This document shows positions 49,843-56,906 of a stretch of 64,000 bases of DNA, piece after piece (position 1 is the first letter of the stretch; the number at the start of each line of letters is the position of its first letter). Origin of the DNA: a phage. The notes below the pieces were generated by a model. That model was not told where the DNA came from, searched no databases, and was given only the letters and a program-made list of their open reading frames with translations. The position numbers were made by a program, and so were the translations under genes. The DNA lies in NCBI GenBank assembly GCA_018027755.1, contig GCA_018027755.1_4098.1; one strand, given 5' to 3'.

Positions 49843-49907
49843 AATTTATTCCTTTAAATCAGTAAAGTACTAGATCAGTACTGGGAATTATATATAGAAA
49901 TATTTAT

Positions 49908-49942
49908 TCAAAAAGAAAAGCACTCCGAAGAGTGCTTTTATA
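49908..49942 (-). terminator. bidirectional hairpin terminator
   Basis: GCACTC-CGAA-GAGTGC flanked by A/T runs. Confidence 0.55.
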
Positions 49943-49943
49943 A

Positions 49944-50354: not shown

Positions 50355-50843
50355 TTATACGGATTCAACGATACGTGCCATCTTTTCCGCTCGTGAAGTG
50401 GTTTGTTTATACCATGTACTATCACGCAATTCTTTACCAGCAGTTTTGTAATCAGCTTTACCTAATGCGGTCATTGCTTTTTTAAATTTCAAAACTTTGG
50501 TTTTTCCCATTTGGAATACCATTAACCATAATACACGTTGTACCTGTACTGGTGCGGTCATACCGAATTGTTCATAAATTGATTTTGCATCATTGTACGC
50601 AGTTTGAGCATCTTTGAGAAGAAGTTGGTCAGCTTGAGCTTCGGTCAAACCATTCTTGAAATTTTCACCAGGAAGAACTAGATGACCATAACCAATAGTA
50701 TCAAGACCTAAACTGTCTTTATATACCCAAAACTTATCATTTTTAAAATAACCAAGTTTTTTCTGATAAGCAATAGTTCCTTCAAATTCTTTAATTTCCT
50801 TAAAAAATTGCTCATCTGTATTTTTAATTTCCCATTTACTCAT
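50355..50843 (-). CDS. T4-type lysozyme (GH24 endolysin)
   Basis: EFEGT...DTIGYGHL and MVFQMGKTKVLKFKK...STWYKQTTSRAEKMARI align with T4 lysozyme catalytic Glu/Asp/Thr and C-lobe. Confidence 0.85.
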   Translation of the reverse strand: MSKWEIKNTDEQFFKEIKEFEGTIAYQKKLGYFKNDKFWVYKDSLGLDTIGYGHLVLPGENFKNGLTEAQADQLLLKDAQTAYNDAKSIYEQFGMTAPVQVQRVLWLMVFQMGKTKVLKFKKAMTALGKADYKTAGKELRDSTWYKQTTSRAEKMARIVESV

Positions 50844-50859
50844 AAAGATATCCTCGTTT

Positions 50860-50867
50860 TATTTATA
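50860..50867 (-). promoter_or_regulatory. T4-type late promoter box TATAAATA
   Basis: Exact TATAAATA on minus strand about 17 nt upstream of lysozyme ATG, followed by GAGGA RBS. Confidence 0.5.
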
Positions 50868-50879
50868 GTGCTAAAATAT

Positions 50880-53543
50880 TTATTGACATGCCTCCAAACG
50901 ACGAGCCATTAACTCCGCACGGCGTGTGGTTTGGCGATACCAAGCAGAATTGCGGATTTGTGCCGCTGCTTGTTTATAATTACCTTTTGCCATTTCTGAT
51001 AACATAGTTTTAAATTTCAATACACCACCTTTACCCATCTGAAATACCATTTGGCATAGTACTTGTTGAGCAAGATAAGGAGTTTTCATGTTATATGAAG
51101 CATAAATTGATTTGGCATCATAAATTGCTTTACTACTATCACGAACTAACATATCATTTGCTTGTTGTTCAGTTATTCCATCAGAGAAGTTTTCACCGCT
51201 AACAATTAAGTGACCGTAACCAATAGTTGGATATCCACGACTATCTAAATAACGCCAGAACTTACCATTACGATAATATCCCTTTGCTTGTTGATATTGT
51301 AATGTACCCTCATATTCTTTTAATTCAGAAATAAACTGAGCATCACCTGGAACAACTTTCCAATCTATGGCTGTTTTATCAACATTACCTATATTATAAG
51401 TTGGTTGCTCAACTGGCGTAGTTGAAACACCACTTCTTTGTGTTCTTCTCCTACGAGGAACATGTCGTGAACCACGTTGTGAATAACCTGTACCAATTGT
51501 TTTAATTTTTGTAGTAACTACTAATTCATCACTATCAACAGAAGGTTGCACTACTGCTTGAGGTGCAGATTGATTGGTTGCTTTTCCTGCAATTAATGTT
51601 TTATTGGCTGCGTCAGAACCAGTACCAGTTTGAGATGCATAAAATAGACCCGGATCAACTGAACCGCTAAAACCAAGCACGTTAGCTGATGTAACACGTA
51701 TTTCAAACTGTATAACACCATTTGCTTTACCAACAACTTGGCCTTTTTGAACAACATCTTTGTTTAATAAATCAGATTGAATATTATAAAATACAGATTT
51801 ATATCCTGACTTATGTTGTATTAACAGTGCACCATTAGTAATTACTATTACACCACCATCGGGTGCAACTATGTCACCTTTACATTGTATTTCCCATCCA
51901 GAACGATCTGACTTCCCACCACTTTGTGTTGGAACACCTTTCCCCCAATAACCATATTGGCGAATAGTACCACTACATGGCATGAACATATGTAAACCTT
52001 CATATGTAATACTATATCCAGTCATCCCAGGGTCAGATGTCATTAAATCTTGAGATTGCACTTGTTCAGTTTCTGATGTATAGTTAACAAACTGAACAGC
52101 TTCAGTGTCTTGTGCTACGGGTAATTCTGGTGATACATCATTTGCTGGTTGTGGTTGTACTGGTGATTCACTAGAACCACTTCCACCACCTTGTCTTGGT
52201 GGTTCAACATAACTACCATGATTTTCAGCGTTAACCCATGCAGCAATATCATGAATGTGTTCATTAAGACCAGCAGATGGTGTTCTAAAGTTTGGTGCAG
52301 TAAATTCAGCAGTACCGCTATTACCACCACTATTAACTGTTAATGTTTGACCACCACCACTAATAATTGCTGATGATGATCCAATTAGGTTTGCAGATGT
52401 TGCGGCAGAAATAGAAGCATTTGAACCAGCCGTAATATCAGTACTGCTACCACTTTGCATACGTAATGATGCAGCAGTAACTAAACGAAGGTCTGCCCCA
52501 GAATTAACAACAACTTGACCACCAACTTTTGCATCAAGAGCACCAATTAGATCTAATTTAGTATTTGCACCAACTCGTGCATTGAAATCTTGTCCGGTTT
52601 CAATATTATATGAACGTCCAGCAGTAATATTAATATCTTGACCAGCACGAATATTAATATTCTTATCACAATGCATGTCAATATCACCTTCACCAGTGAA
52701 TTTTATACGTGCAGTGCCATCACGGTTAATTAAAAGAACATCACCAGTAGCTTCTGATAAAAGAAGTTGTGCACCACTACGTGTTTTTATTACGACACCT
52801 TCATTTTTACGAGAACCAACACGTGTATCGTTTACTGGGTTATTAAATTGTGTATCTTGATATCCATCTGGGTCTTGATCCCACGTTGGTGCTGTTAATT
52901 CCTCTTCAGTATATCCATCATCAATAATAAAACTATTACCACGTGGCGAAGACATACCATATACAGTACTGGTGGTTTGACGAGTACTACTACGATTCGC
53001 CAACCCAGCTTCTTCGTCATATAAAAGGTTTTGCTTTTTAAGACCTGCGATAATTGGAACGTTAGCATATTTGTCTTGCATATCGGTAGTGATAGTGTTA
53101 CGATCATAGTCAGTAACAGGAAGTGGCATATCAGTTCCACCATAATTACTTACTTCAGTTGCCATACCAGGAACCATAGTATTCATACGCTGGTCATATA
53201 CACAACCAATCCAATATGCTTGGAATGTACGGGCTTGTGCAAAAATTACAACAACTGTACACCCTACATCTGGTGGTACTGCCCAAAAACCATATCCTTT
53301 TGGATATTGACCATATGCATCAGCACTTGGAATACCTGGTGTTTTGCCAGCAAAAGGAGACATGTAAGATGCTTCTATCCATGATTCTTTTGAGTTTTTA
53401 TCACTTTGAGAACCTTGTATCCAAACTTTCAGTTTTCCTGATTTAGTTGGATCTCTGTTATCCATAACAGTTGCTAACTGCGGATAAGATGGGTCAAAAC
53501 GACCCAACTGCTGTTGTGCATACTTTTTACTTGTATCTGCCAT
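50880..53543 (-). CDS. baseplate central spike (gp5-like) with degenerate M23-like domain and C-terminal lysozyme domain
   Basis: N-terminal OB-type motif DPTKSGKLKVWIQG; beta-helix-like repeats NINIRAGQDINITAGRSYNIETGQDFNARVGANT; M23-like segment lacking the His ligands (CKGDIV, YNIQS, VIQFE); C-terminal GH24 domain EYEGT...PTIGYGHL...MVFQMGKGGVLKFK. Confidence 0.75.
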   Translation of the reverse strand: MADTSKKYAQQQLGRFDPSYPQLATVMDNRDPTKSGKLKVWIQGSQSDKNSKESWIEASYMSPFAGKTPGIPSADAYGQYPKGYGFWAVPPDVGCTVVVIFAQARTFQAYWIGCVYDQRMNTMVPGMATEVSNYGGTDMPLPVTDYDRNTITTDMQDKYANVPIIAGLKKQNLLYDEEAGLANRSSTRQTTSTVYGMSSPRGNSFIIDDGYTEEELTAPTWDQDPDGYQDTQFNNPVNDTRVGSRKNEGVVIKTRSGAQLLLSEATGDVLLINRDGTARIKFTGEGDIDMHCDKNINIRAGQDINITAGRSYNIETGQDFNARVGANTKLDLIGALDAKVGGQVVVNSGADLRLVTAASLRMQSGSSTDITAGSNASISAATSANLIGSSSAIISGGGQTLTVNSGGNSGTAEFTAPNFRTPSAGLNEHIHDIAAWVNAENHGSYVEPPRQGGGSGSSESPVQPQPANDVSPELPVAQDTEAVQFVNYTSETEQVQSQDLMTSDPGMTGYSITYEGLHMFMPCSGTIRQYGYWGKGVPTQSGGKSDRSGWEIQCKGDIVAPDGGVIVITNGALLIQHKSGYKSVFYNIQSDLLNKDVVQKGQVVGKANGVIQFEIRVTSANVLGFSGSVDPGLFYASQTGTGSDAANKTLIAGKATNQSAPQAVVQPSVDSDELVVTTKIKTIGTGYSQRGSRHVPRRRRTQRSGVSTTPVEQPTYNIGNVDKTAIDWKVVPGDAQFISELKEYEGTLQYQQAKGYYRNGKFWRYLDSRGYPTIGYGHLIVSGENFSDGITEQQANDMLVRDSSKAIYDAKSIYASYNMKTPYLAQQVLCQMVFQMGKGGVLKFKTMLSEMAKGNYKQAAAQIRNSAWYRQTTRRAELMARRLEACQ

Positions 53544-53556
53544 AATATTTTATTCC

Positions 53557-55806
53557 TTAATCAACTATACTATCGTGACGTTTGAGTGCACGAATTACAA
53601 TTGCAGCTTGAATTTGTTGTGTAAAAGAACCACCTGCACCAAAATCATGAACAATTTTATTAACACGATAAATTGTTTGGTTAAATGTGGTTGGTGTATT
53701 AATATCCAAAACACCAGTGTTATCATTTATTGATATTACTGGTTGTAATTTCAGTAATAGATACGCTTCAGATGTTATATAATTTGCTACATGATAATCA
53801 TCTGGGTTAATTTCCATATCTTCACCATTAATTACTTGTTCTAGATATTGTAAGTAAGAGTAATCACTCCACCCTAACCAGTACGGGTCGCCTACTACAC
53901 GCATATCGAGTTTACACAAAAAAGGTCTATTGTAATAGTTGTCACGTATTTTACGTCTATCCATTTCATATGTGCTGCTGTTATCGTTTAACGAAGCGGA
54001 TAAAGTTGTTTCATTGTTAGTTGCTTCGGTTGGCATTGTGAACACTTCACCATAACGGTGACCAACACCATCAGTACCGCCATCGTTTTCTTCATAAGTG
54101 GTTACATAATCCTCAATATATTGAGGTAAAACATTGACTTGATAGTTATTATAACGGTCTTGTTCTTCTGCGTTACCAACCTGCATTTGATTTTTTGCTA
54201 AAGTTTCAACTTCAGTTAACAATTGTTGTTGGGCTTGTGTTAACATCCCTCCTAAATCACGAGTTACACGTAAATCACTTGTTTTTGCCCATGCGTCTGG
54301 TATACTATTGTATTGTACACCTTGAATATTGAGTTCTTGGGATGTATGTGTACCTGCATGGTTCGCTACATCTTGTATCGGACCAGGGTTACGTGTAGTG
54401 GCTACGAAAAATTGCTGATCGAATTTCAAATCCAAATCAAGTATCTCACTATTAAGCCCACTAAATTGATAATTATAAGTTTTCATGTTTATTTTTGGTT
54501 TTTGATCATTAGGATCTACGTATTTTTCTGCGTTCTCGAAAAAGTACTCAAATGTGAAATTTTCAGGTTGTAAATCCGATTCATGAACAATATCACCTAT
54601 TTTAAATCTAACAATATAAAAAATTACTTTATAAACAGAAGTATTACGATAATTATCAAAACCAACGTATTGTTTAACTGGTATAATGTTTACAAATTGA
54701 CGCACACTAGTACTATCATCGGCTTGTACAGTACATGTATCAATAACGTCATCAATAATTCGAGATATAGGAGTACTTGGGTTCCATGAAAAGTTTTTAG
54801 AACCTTGTGCACCACTTTTAGTTGTTCCGGCCTCTGCCATTTGTTTAGAATCATAGTTTATAAACAAATCTTGCAAATCAGGTGCTACTTTAAATTCGAA
54901 AAATTTACCTTCGGATAATTCACCAAATTTATATCTAAGATAACCATATTGTTGGTCAGCCATCTGATTTAATTTATCTTCTAAATCAAAGCAGAAGTCA
55001 CCAAAGTTTTCAGCAGTACAATTGAATGGTTCTTTTAAGGTCCATTCAATGTTATCAACTAAAGCTGCTCTATTATGAACTAAGTTCATAGTATACATCA
55101 TAGTACTACCACTTTGTGAAGCACTTGCAGTAACACTATTAATTTTAACTGACCAGCGTCTTGTTGTTTCTGGGATAATTTCAGGTATTCCATTTTTATT
55201 AAAGCCAATAAACTTTAATTCCAAGATCAATGGCAAGTCCATAAATTTATGATATCTAAGTTTGTTACTTAACGAAATTAATTCATCATAAAGACTCATA
55301 CTATTATTTTCAGACATATTAAGTACTGCTGTATTAAAACAATAGTTTGTTGTCATTCCTGGTGTTGAAGGTCCAGCTTGTGTCATTTGTACACTAGTGA
55401 TATTATATTTGCCAGTAACACCACTTTCTGATATCACATGTCGTTGCACTTCTGCATCTGGGTAAAGCCAAAAGTTTTTAAAATCATCTTTATCTAAGGC
55501 AAATAAACAAAAGTGCCATGTTGGATTATCATATTTCAATAATTTATTGTCATACGGTATTACAAACTGACTTAAATCTAGATCTTCATAAACTTGATCA
55601 ACACTAGCACTTTGTTTTGGTAATGATACTACATTACTTACATTTGCTTTGTAATTATTTTTTGTAATAGTTTTCACATCATTTTGTAATGTATTTGCTG
55701 TAGCTTTCAAACTATCAAGTGCATTAGATGTGGTGGTTTTAGCCTTACCAGTAATACTTGTAATATCATTTTGAAAATTATCAACTGTACTTCGTAAATC
55801 TGCCAT
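53557..55806 (-). CDS. hypothetical baseplate-module protein (hub-like by position)
   Basis: 749 aa between LysM-like gene and spike gene; no motif recognised. Confidence 0.35.
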   Translation of the reverse strand: MADLRSTVDNFQNDITSITGKAKTTTSNALDSLKATANTLQNDVKTITKNNYKANVSNVVSLPKQSASVDQVYEDLDLSQFVIPYDNKLLKYDNPTWHFCLFALDKDDFKNFWLYPDAEVQRHVISESGVTGKYNITSVQMTQAGPSTPGMTTNYCFNTAVLNMSENNSMSLYDELISLSNKLRYHKFMDLPLILELKFIGFNKNGIPEIIPETTRRWSVKINSVTASASQSGSTMMYTMNLVHNRAALVDNIEWTLKEPFNCTAENFGDFCFDLEDKLNQMADQQYGYLRYKFGELSEGKFFEFKVAPDLQDLFINYDSKQMAEAGTTKSGAQGSKNFSWNPSTPISRIIDDVIDTCTVQADDSTSVRQFVNIIPVKQYVGFDNYRNTSVYKVIFYIVRFKIGDIVHESDLQPENFTFEYFFENAEKYVDPNDQKPKINMKTYNYQFSGLNSEILDLDLKFDQQFFVATTRNPGPIQDVANHAGTHTSQELNIQGVQYNSIPDAWAKTSDLRVTRDLGGMLTQAQQQLLTEVETLAKNQMQVGNAEEQDRYNNYQVNVLPQYIEDYVTTYEENDGGTDGVGHRYGEVFTMPTEATNNETTLSASLNDNSSTYEMDRRKIRDNYYNRPFLCKLDMRVVGDPYWLGWSDYSYLQYLEQVINGEDMEINPDDYHVANYITSEAYLLLKLQPVISINDNTGVLDINTPTTFNQTIYRVNKIVHDFGAGGSFTQQIQAAIVIRALKRHDSIVD

Positions 55807-55817
55807 ACGTTACTCCA

Positions 55818-56132
55818 TTAGCCTATGTTTCGAGTACCATTAAGATAATTTTGTACTCTTTGATTTGCTGGTATTCTAATTGTTACTCCACTTTTAAAAT
55901 TATATATAGGATCTTCTCCTAGTATGTCTGGATTTAACAATGCGAAAATATAATATAAGCGTTCATTACCATACATTTCGTATGCTAAACGCCAAGGTTG
56001 ATATTCATATTTCAATGGGATCTCATAAAAATCATCAGTATCAGCCGGAACAATATCACGTGGTAAATTATACCCAAGATACCATGTTTGTTTCACCTTA
56101 GCGTAAGGTGAGTATTGACTATAGTTGGACAT
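55818..56132 (-). CDS. LysM-like small baseplate protein (gp53 / P2 X-like)
   Basis: YEIPLKYEY...RLAYEMYGNERLYYIFALLNPDI...GVTIRIP resembles a LysM fold; position upstream of hub/spike. Confidence 0.35.
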   Translation of the reverse strand: MSNYSQYSPYAKVKQTWYLGYNLPRDIVPADTDDFYEIPLKYEYQPWRLAYEMYGNERLYYIFALLNPDILGEDPIYNFKSGVTIRIPANQRVQNYLNGTRNIG

Positions 56133-56863
56133 TAAATGAATCCTCCTTTACGTAATAGTTCACCACGTTTGAATGCATTGAGGTTGAACGTTTTAGTCAT
56201 ATAATCCGATGTTGGTTGTTCTTCAAGTTGTAACATAACTGAGATTTTTTGTGGAACCCAAACTTCATCTTGTGGGTTCATATATCCAGTACTTCTAAGT
56301 TGTTCGAAGAATTTTCTACTATCCATGTCGGATAAATTAAAAGTACTATCGCTACTATTCAACGGAACTTGAATATAAGAAACATCATTTGGGTAAGTAA
56401 AATTATAAGATTTTAAAATAACAGGAATATCATTATATGTATAACGACCATATCCACTTAGAAGTAAGATTGGTGGTGGTGCACCTGCAATTGCGAGTTC
56501 GGGGTTATTAGCCGAAGCAGCTTGTCTACCAAAATCCATCAACGAAACAGAACGTATAAAATGAACACATGCCAACGCATACATAGCTTCTGCTGCTGTA
56601 TTCGCATAAAATTCACCCTGAATCGTGAAAACTGTATTAGTAGTGTTCTTATAGTTGTTATAGTTACTGTTAGTATGTATAGGGGACTGTGTTTCATACT
56701 GAATTGACCTTTGTTCAGTAATTGTTGGTGTTACAGTCCAAACCAACCCATTAGTTGGACGCAGAAACGAAAGTAGAGTTGGTTCGGAGCTATCTCCAAA
56801 ATCACCATATACATAGTTAGCACCTGCGGCTTTAGGTCGTAATCGAATTCTACGATCAATCAT
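56132..56863 (-). CDS. hypothetical structural protein (first gene of baseplate operon)
   Basis: ATG at 56863 with GGAG RBS; the longer track ORF (to 56953, TTG) would contain the late promoter. Confidence 0.4.
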   Translation of the reverse strand: MIDRRIRLRPKAAGANYVYGDFGDSSEPTLLSFLRPTNGLVWTVTPTITEQRSIQYETQSPIHTNSNYNNYKNTTNTVFTIQGEFYANTAAEAMYALACVHFIRSVSLMDFGRQAASANNPELAIAGAPPPILLLSGYGRYTYNDIPVILKSYNFTYPNDVSYIQVPLNSSDSTFNLSDMDSRKFFEQLRSTGYMNPQDEVWVPQKISVMLQLEEQPTSDYMTKTFNLNAFKRGELLRKGGFI

Positions 56864-56898: not shown

Positions 56899-56906
56899 TA
56901 TTTATA
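56899..56906 (-). promoter_or_regulatory. T4-type late promoter box TATAAATA
   Basis: Exact TATAAATA on minus strand about 35 nt upstream of ATG 56863. Confidence 0.5.

Follow-up and report, generated by a model that had tools for sequence, protein, structure and literature searches.

The window considered here, a stretch of phage DNA of 64,000 nucleotides (nt) from contig GCA_018027755.1_4098.1 of GenBank assembly GCA_018027755.1, matches the DNA of Escherichia phage 121Q at 99.7% identity; 121Q, of 348 kb, is an Asteriusvirus and belongs to the Rak2-like jumbo myoviruses (RefSeq annotation). On its minus strand, which holds every feature of the two proteins described below, it carries two neighbouring open reading frames (ORFs) that match 121Q genes 587 and 586: the gene of a spike protein of 887 amino acids (aa) plus stop codon (50880..53543; ORF list, with a match to phrog_13211 over 1-887/887 positions) and that of a free GH24 (T4-type) lysozyme of 162 aa (50355..50843; ORF list, Pfam and paralogy alignment). 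We consider it probable that a Rak2-like (Asteriusvirus) jumbo myovirus uses the larger protein as its baseplate central spike, in which a gpV-type needle carries a tethered, dead LytM domain and an active lysozyme, the latter duplicated to give the free enzyme. An initial annotation of the locus, made from the letters alone, had proposed an OB domain, a beta-helix, an M23-like segment and a C-terminal lysozyme. All four are recovered by Pfam, profile and structure searches, and the Pfam positions confirm a domain order unlike that of T4 gp5, with the lysozyme at the C-terminus and the helix before it. What the annotation had missed is an HxH motif behind the helix, which alters the reading of the spike architecture.

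The needle half of the protein opens with an OB-fold domain (residues 23-116; 53196..53477) that matches Pfam PF04717 (Phage_base_V) at 29.8 bits against a cut-off of 23.8, aligns with the VgrG OB domain of 9jg8_G (residues 364-448) and is of nearly constant length across the family (118-119 aa); its expected role is to attach the spike to the hub or tube. The neck that follows (residues 117-254; 52782..53195) has no Pfam match. It is highly conserved (column conservation 0.66-0.83), measures 134-136 aa in all family members and is poorly modelled as a monomer. Next comes a triple-stranded beta-helix of the VgrG/gp5 type (about residues 255-415; 52299..52781), recognised by Pfam DUF2345 at 34.9 bits (cut-off 30.7) and by a profile that matches, among solved structures, VgrG1 4uhv as well as 4mtk, 8gra and 9gtr. 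The full-length model places regular short strands over residues 248-404, and the helix, which ranges from 154 to 196 aa in the family, is predicted to be trimeric.

Directly after the helix stand H429 and H431, the two histidines of an H-I-H motif that are invariant in 20 of 20 family members. They lie in a candidate Apex domain (about residues 416-448; 52200..52298), assigned from this conservation and from a structure-profile match. In gpV-type spikes, an HxH motif that forms an iron-binding histidine cage is the sole universally conserved mark of the Apex, and spikes without it, such as T4 gp5, use a separate PAAR tip (preprint 10.1101/2023.02.25.529910). When residues 405-450 are used as a profile, the best match among solved structures is to the last 35 residues (171-205 of 207) of 9ndy_G, a 207-aa phage 'puncture apparatus' spike of the gpV type, with HTH aligned (E 0.015). 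From these similarities, the HxH of the spike trimer is predicted to form such an iron-binding cage. The motif occupies residues 429-431 of 887, with 456 residues following it; on this reading, residues 1-450 would amount to a whole spike of the P2 gpV type, with the roughly 440 residues behind it as tethered cargo. A separate alignment of the HIH to VgrG1 4uhv, the top helix match, proved to be an artefact, the aligned stretch being the His-tag of that entry, and it was not used for the apex.

The first folded part of this cargo, residues 515-636 (51636..52001), is the M23-like segment of the initial annotation. To single-sequence methods its signal is weak: a whole-protein Pfam scan of the spike at E<=1 does not list M23, a phmmer search of the middle region against solved structures returned only a chance match to a lectin, and a word-indexed protein search with residues 440-725 recovered one partial fragment only. 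Once isolated, the window copy of the domain reaches E 2.9e-4 and 21.4 bits against PF01551 (Pfam cut-off 28.7), and 11 of 11 isolated members match this family, the best at 7e-7. By tblastn, the segment is found in 73 phage records, all of them from Rak2-like jumbo phages.

Profile and structure methods are firm. Twelve relative loci were fetched, their spike proteins aligned and a profile built from residues 505-645; the seven solved structures that it matches best (lowest E 1.6e-4) are LasA, pseudoalterin, zoocin A, SpoIIQ (two entries) and DipM (two chains)—all of them M23/LytM-fold proteins. Comparison by hhalign with the LytM domains of E. coli MepM, EnvC and NlpD gives a probability of 97.1% and an E of 5.9e-11 over 97 columns, and residues 515-636 show the beta-sheet fold of LytM. 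Among 1.84 billion representative proteins searched with HMMER, the domain occurs in eight clusters only, seven of 872-984 aa with a common four-domain architecture and one that is an 84-aa fragment; two of the full-size representatives, P0004 (30.1 bits) and P0008 (33.4 bits), exceed the Pfam M23 cut-off of 28.7. The middle module of the spike thus has a real M23/LytM fold, and the outcome that the initial annotation had named as fatal to its view, a middle segment that is not M23-like, was not seen, profile searches returning M23/LytM folds.

With MepM as a ruler, the zinc and catalytic positions of M23 enzymes can be placed one by one, and all five are replaced (R547, E551, N589, V610 and Q612). 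The HxxxD zinc motif is absent, its place being taken by R547-S-G-W-E551, and among the 20 family members the residue is R, S, H or N at 547 and E, I, T or D at 551. The histidine of Y-x-H corresponds to N589 and the HxH motif to V610-I-Q612, positions at which none of the 20 members has a histidine; at none of the five columns is a His, Asp or Glu conserved. The sole invariant histidine, H577, aligns to one kept in EnvC and NlpD that lies outside the HxxxD and HxH motifs, and it is therefore not a known catalytic residue. Having lost its zinc ligands and catalytic histidines, the domain cannot be a peptidase, and on this motif evidence the module is classed as a degenerate LytM (dLytM) domain across the whole family. 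The initial annotation had called the segment probably inactive, in agreement with this result, and had placed 'YNIQS' and 'VIQFE' correctly; its third equivalence, 'CKGD' (554-557), is shifted by six to seven residues from the true register, KGDIVAP being the strand after the HxxxD-equivalent motif and not the motif itself.

The best structural matches of the domain are the degenerate LytM factors EnvC, NlpD, DipM and SpoIIQ, and the list of matches includes the EnvC-AmiB complex 8c0j. Sequence identity to EnvC is 19-22%. Active M23 enzymes score almost as well (StM23 12.9, Csd3 12.8, LytM 12.0), so that the fold match cannot separate activators from enzymes. A module that is dead in every known member and yet strictly conserved must have a role other than peptide cleavage.

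Two linkers set the dead domain apart from its neighbours. Linker 1 (about residues 449-514; 52002..52199) is rich in Gly, Ser, Pro and Gln and poorly conserved, and its length differs among family members (57-112 aa). Linker 2 (about residues 637-724; 51372..51635), of 80-103 aa, consists of a conserved ELVV...IG.GYSQRGSRHVPRR stretch and then a very variable segment, with conservation dropping to 0.29 at residues 701-720. The full-length monomer model assigns no secondary structure to residues 405-489 around linker 1, where blocks of the predicted local distance difference test (pLDDT) of 25-36 are among its lowest, or to residues 629-717 around linker 2 (pLDDT 26-44). This model is poor as a whole (pLDDT 48); it backs the linker boundaries weakly, and inter-domain contacts were not drawn from it. 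Both linkers are probable flexible tethers. Inside linker 2, the conserved stretch is basic (S-x-ELVV...IG.GYSQRGSRHVPRR(RR), residues 668-700; window 51444-51542) and has no family match; it may serve for processing or as a docking strand.

The spike ends in a GH24 lysozyme domain (residues 725-887; 50883..51371), for which the full-length model reaches a pLDDT of 70-91. Both this domain and the free ORF pass the cut-off of Phage_lysozyme PF00959 (22.3 bits), the former with 44.5 bits at residues 765-882 and the latter with 37 bits. The initial annotation had called the next gene a paralogous free lysozyme, and pairwise alignment agrees: the free protein aligns without gaps to spike residues 728-885, with 52% identity over 158 residues (E 7e-57). 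Alignment to T4 lysozyme identifies the equivalents of Glu11, Asp20 and Thr26 as E745, D767 and T773 in the spike and as E21, D43 and T49 in the free enzyme; a free ORF devoid of the catalytic Glu, Asp and Thr, which would have spoken against the annotation, was not what was found. A conserved insertion of 13 residues between the catalytic Glu and Asp is common to both paralogues and explains why hidden Markov model alignments begin after the Glu. The Glu-Asp spacing is 21 residues (50718-50780 for residues 22-42 of the free enzyme; 51246-51308 for residues 746-766 of the spike), versus 8 in T4 lysozyme, and the Glu assignment therefore rests on an invariant E-G motif.

Conservation of the triad differs between the two forms. 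All 12 free copies keep the Thr, and with it the full triad. In the spike-borne domain, an Asp replaces the Thr in Munch and Hallingskeid, a Ser in XaC1 and an Ile in P0006, and at least the Asp and the Thr are lost in P0009; these divergent cases come from L007, L010, L005, P0006 and P0009. Selection on catalysis may thus be relaxed in the spike copy. Where the triad is intact, as in the window, the spike-borne domain is predicted to be muralytic. For the free form, activity has been seen in an orthologue: LysUE1 of phage UE-S1, a 162-aa protein of 96% similarity, was purified and is muralytic (PMC12805682).

The initial annotation had suggested a duplication of the wall-degrading module into tail-associated and soluble forms. 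In a neighbour-joining tree, all 12 free copies fall into one clade that is nested among the enterobacterial spike-borne domains, outside of which lie the spike of a Vibrio phage and the divergent spikes from the representative search. This nesting, together with a Vibrio phage that has no adjacent free copy, supports one duplication, from spike to free copy, and fits a single event in the ancestor of the enterobacterial Rak2-like phages. The phage in question, Vibrio phage 2.275.O (L003 2142-5176), is a distant marine relative with a four-domain spike at 41% identity; a free lysozyme was not found beside this spike, the gene directly after it encoding 123 aa. While the duplication is thus supported, the soluble form is plausible rather than proven: its plausibility comes from the free protein having gone undetected in virion proteomes, namely those of CBB, where it was not reported (PMC5259590), and of phAPEC6, where the 95.9-kDa spike is present and the free lysozyme is not listed (PMC7247149). 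Rak2-like phages have a third lysozyme paralogue, the predicted endolysin (PMC3622015, PMC5259590), which in CBB is a separate gene, CBB_187 (121Q gp532) (PMC5259590).

That the spike is part of the particle can be said from its orthologues. These are 121Q gene 587 (gp587), RaK2 ORF078/gp5, CBB_240 and phAPEC6 gp241, which are 52-99% identical and match the window protein in domain order and in neighbouring genes as well. Two of them, phAPEC6 gp241 and CBB_240, were detected in virions by mass spectrometry (PMC7247149, PMC5259590), and the CBB report states that confirmation as structural proteins is limited to the gp25-like protein and the spike (PMC5259590).

Put together, these parts suggest the following sequence of events. 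Residues 1-450 would form a complete spike of the P2 gpV/phi92 gp138 type, made up of a hub-docking OB domain, a trimeric beta-helix and an Apex closed by the HxH motif. Beyond it, the three chains would continue through a Gly/Ser/Pro/Gln-rich tether into the dead LytM domain and through a second tether into an intact GH24 muramidase. Sheath contraction would drive the spike through the outer membrane and carry the tethered modules into the periplasm, where the lysozyme would cut glycan strands locally so that the tail tube could pass. The dead LytM domain would most likely serve as a non-catalytic binding module that holds the lysozyme on peptidoglycan or docks a partner via the remnant of its groove; such a peptidoglycan- or partner-binding role is the most conservative reading of its sequence. 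The free lysozyme, finally, which has its own late box or boxes and is active as judged from its orthologue, would be a non-virion enzyme, probably made in numbers beyond the three spike copies.

Several observations weigh against this picture. Known dLytM proteins (EnvC, NlpD, DipM, SpoIIQ) act mainly by protein-protein contacts, and some 440 residues per chain leaving a sharpened Apex have no precedent among gpV-type spikes. With a pLDDT of 48, the full-length model supports disorder of the linkers only weakly. The match of the spike apex to 9ndy_G is marginal at E 0.015, and HxH cages occur in fibres too, as mere trimer clamps (preprint 10.1101/2023.02.25.529910). The loss of the Thr26 equivalent in some spike lineages means that catalysis by the spike-borne domain may not be essential everywhere. 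Lastly, that mass spectrometry failed to find an 18.8-kDa protein of possibly low copy number is no proof that virions lack the free lysozyme.

Other roles for the middle domain have to be weighed against simple binding. The published term 'M23 family peptidase domain' implies an active peptidase and hence a spike with two enzymes like phi29 gp13; the motif analysis effectively excludes this, all five MepM/LytM-type zinc and catalytic positions being replaced, with His, Asp or Glu conserved at none of them across the 20 members, and the lone invariant H577 being shared with EnvC and NlpD outside the known motifs. The likeness to those two factors could instead mean that the dead domain mimics them as host dLytM activators, binding AmiA, AmiB or AmiC, releasing their autoinhibition and recruiting host autolysins. 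We consider this improbable given that active M23 enzymes match the fold almost equally, that identity to EnvC is so low and that just three copies would be delivered per infection; there is a slim chance that the spike would deliver such an EnvC/NlpD mimic behind an iron-tipped needle, activate periplasmic host amidases at the site of entry while its own lysozyme severs glycan strands, and so breach the wall partly by means of host autolysins. It is likewise unlikely that the domain acts within the spike itself as an intramolecular regulator or dock, keeping the lysozyme inactive or folded back against the beta-helix, both in virions and in the cell that makes them, until contraction releases it. 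Both modules do occur together and in the same order in 20 of 20 family members, dLytM grooves bind helices of hydrolases, as in the EnvC-AmiB complex, and T4 offers a precedent in the gp5 lysozyme, described as partly inhibited in the gp27-gp5 complex (Kanamaru et al. 2005, as cited in PMC7318152). Yet the 80-103 residues of poorly conserved linker between the modules argue against a fixed interface, and the full-length model is too poor to inform on contacts between domains. A dock for the free lysozyme was rejected as the primary role of the dead LytM domain: the Vibrio relative has the domain without an adjacent free copy, and the divergent spikes branch outside the duplication in the tree.

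The free lysozyme, too, can be read differently, namely as a low-copy component of the baseplate or spike, or as an assembly factor, instead of a soluble enzyme of the lysis type. Its gene lies inside the baseplate module in 12 of 13 genomes, which span several genera, a separate endolysin is already predicted for the phage, and small low-copy proteins are easily missed—proteomics of RaK2 virions failed to find even the spike (PMC3622015). We nonetheless regard this as doubtful: the free lysozyme was undetected in CBB and phAPEC6 virions, its own promoter box or boxes suggest more copies than the spike, the orthologue LysUE1 is soluble and active by itself, and the Vibrio relative, in which the spike has no adjacent free copy, indicates that the spike does not need the free lysozyme. 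A non-virion enzyme that arose by duplication of the spike-borne domain is therefore still the reading we prefer.

Among known systems, T4 is the obvious comparison, its central spike (gp5 with gp5.4) likewise combining an OB domain and a trimeric beta-helix with a GH24 lysozyme. T4 also has a free paralogue, the gene e lysozyme, elsewhere in its genome, and shares with the window phage late promoters of the TATAAATA type and a gp55-like sigma factor. In T4 gp5, however, the lysozyme is placed after the OB domain and before the helix, which forms the C-terminus and is capped by a separate PAAR protein, whereas the helix of the window protein is closed by an HxH of its own, and behind it come an additional dead LytM domain and, at the very end, the lysozyme. 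Residues 1-450 share with P2 gpV, phi92 gp138, R-pyocin PA0616 and spikes of the 9ndy_G type a three-part layout in which an OB domain and a beta-helix are followed immediately by HxH. The Apex of this type is iron-loaded, and those spikes end some 12 residues after the motif, whereas the spike of the window runs on for 456.

Cargo behind a needle is familiar from the type VI secretion system, in which 'evolved' VgrG proteins carry C-terminal effector domains, an example being V. cholerae VgrG-3 with its peptidoglycan-degrading domain. As in the spike, a DUF2345 beta-helix is followed by tethered enzymatic cargo that is delivered on contraction, and it is VgrG that the spike helix matches best. 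VgrG differs in belonging to a bacterial secretion system and in having N-terminal gp27-like hub domains; the hub of the spike must be a separate protein. For the dead domain, EnvC, NlpD, DipM and SpoIIQ provide the parallel of a LytM fold without zinc ligands that keeps a 'FEIR' motif, although these are bacterial periplasmic amidase regulators or channel components with an identity of about 20% to the spike domain. The tail-knob enzyme phi29 gp13 unites lysozyme-like and M23 domains as well, but in reversed order; described as an enzyme of cell-wall degradation, it is not joined to the spike needle.

The initial annotation had reported an exact TATAAATA late box at the free lysozyme, and a motif scan does find it at 50860-50867 (minus strand), 16 nt upstream of the ATG. 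It does not stand as a conserved box: the exact form occurs at the free lysozyme only in 121Q and JNE01, the closest relatives, with RaK2 having one at another spacing and the remaining genera a degraded version or none. The box that is kept across genera is ATAAATA at 50877..50883 (minus strand), a late-promoter-like motif that overlaps the stop codon of the spike gene 33 nt upstream of the free lysozyme ATG and whose 'CAATAAATA' context is conserved across genera. ATAAATA has been published as the late motif of CBB and GAP32 (PMC5259590). It is a very specific upstream motif in the window, where 11 of its 12 sites lie within 60 nt upstream of an ORF on the same strand even though 95% of the window is coding; eight of those 11, the free-lysozyme box included, are 28-43 nt from the ATG. 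The TATAAATA motif, for its part, is depleted in the 64-kb window, with 2 copies versus 10.6 expected from shuffles. This depletion and the specificity of ATAAATA look like selection against stray late promoters. A further TATAAATA box at 56899..56906 (minus strand, motif scan) heads the string of baseplate genes to which the spike gene belongs. No ATAAATA was found immediately before the spike gene, the 749-aa gene or the gp53-like gene, and the spike is thus probably transcribed from the box at 56899-56906.

In this baseplate string, densely packed on the minus strand, a structural gene (56132..56863) is followed by the genes of a gp53-like protein, a 749-aa structural protein, the spike, the free lysozyme and then the gp25-like and gp6-like proteins; just past it, on the opposite strand, lies the gene of the gp55-like late sigma factor (RefSeq annotation). 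The 749-aa virion structural gene directly upstream of the spike (53557-55806) has no Pfam family and no relative among solved structures. By position, its product is a candidate for the separate gp27-like hub that the spike needs. The free lysozyme gene lies between the spike and gp25-like genes in 12 of the 13 genomes examined. In RaK2 (L002 5022-6515), four small hypothetical genes, two per strand, separate it from the spike gene; in all other genera examined, the Vibrio phage relative without an adjacent free copy apart, the two genes are adjacent. PADLOC defence-system models gave no match for either protein.

Further along the string, the gp6-like and gp25-like genes of 121Q are separated by a 765-nt HNH endonuclease gene, 584 (L001 7756-8520), which RefSeq notes as 'associated with group I intron'. 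The same gap in the window (49843-49943) spans only about 100 nt, from which it follows that the strain in the window is without this mobile gene, and phage JNE01 has an ORF of the size of the HNH gene at that spot (L013 5853-6617). In the database record of phage CRJP21 (OQ708376.1), the region matching the spike and lysozyme is annotated as 'nuclease subunit' and 'RNA polymerase sigma factor', which suggests that the annotation is shifted or wrong, and in phage CMSTMSU (MH494197.1) the spike match falls into three separately annotated pieces, one of them labelled 'VgrG protein'.

Parts of this picture are already in print. The RaK2 report of 2013 counted ORF078 among the largest baseplate lysozymes, remarked on its 'very unusual domain composition' relative to T4 gp5 and noted three paralogous lysozymes (PMC3622015). 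The CBB report of 2017 described an N-terminal gp5 OB domain and a C-terminal lysozyme in contrast to T4 gp5, along with a central pfam01551 match (E 6.5e-4) common to other Rak2-like phages (PMC5259590). The unusual architecture, the M23 match, the paralogous lysozymes and the late motif were thus published in 2013 and 2017. A literature search found no statement that the M23 module is degenerate, or of an HxH or gpV-type Apex in these spikes, and the RaK2, CBB and phAPEC6 reports did not place the lysozyme duplication on a tree. New here are the invariant HxH after the helix and the second, better conserved ATAAATA box at the spike stop codon.

In itself, the result is a correct re-reading of a family whose odd layout had been published, and it changes little. 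What remains of interest is the needle-plus-cargo topology and the conserved dead LytM domain. What appears to be a complete gpV-type needle nevertheless continues into a cargo of about 440 residues, and one may ask how three chains can trail from a sharpened tip and where the cargo is kept until the tail fires. Should the dead LytM domain prove to bind or activate host hydrolases, it would represent a new entry strategy.

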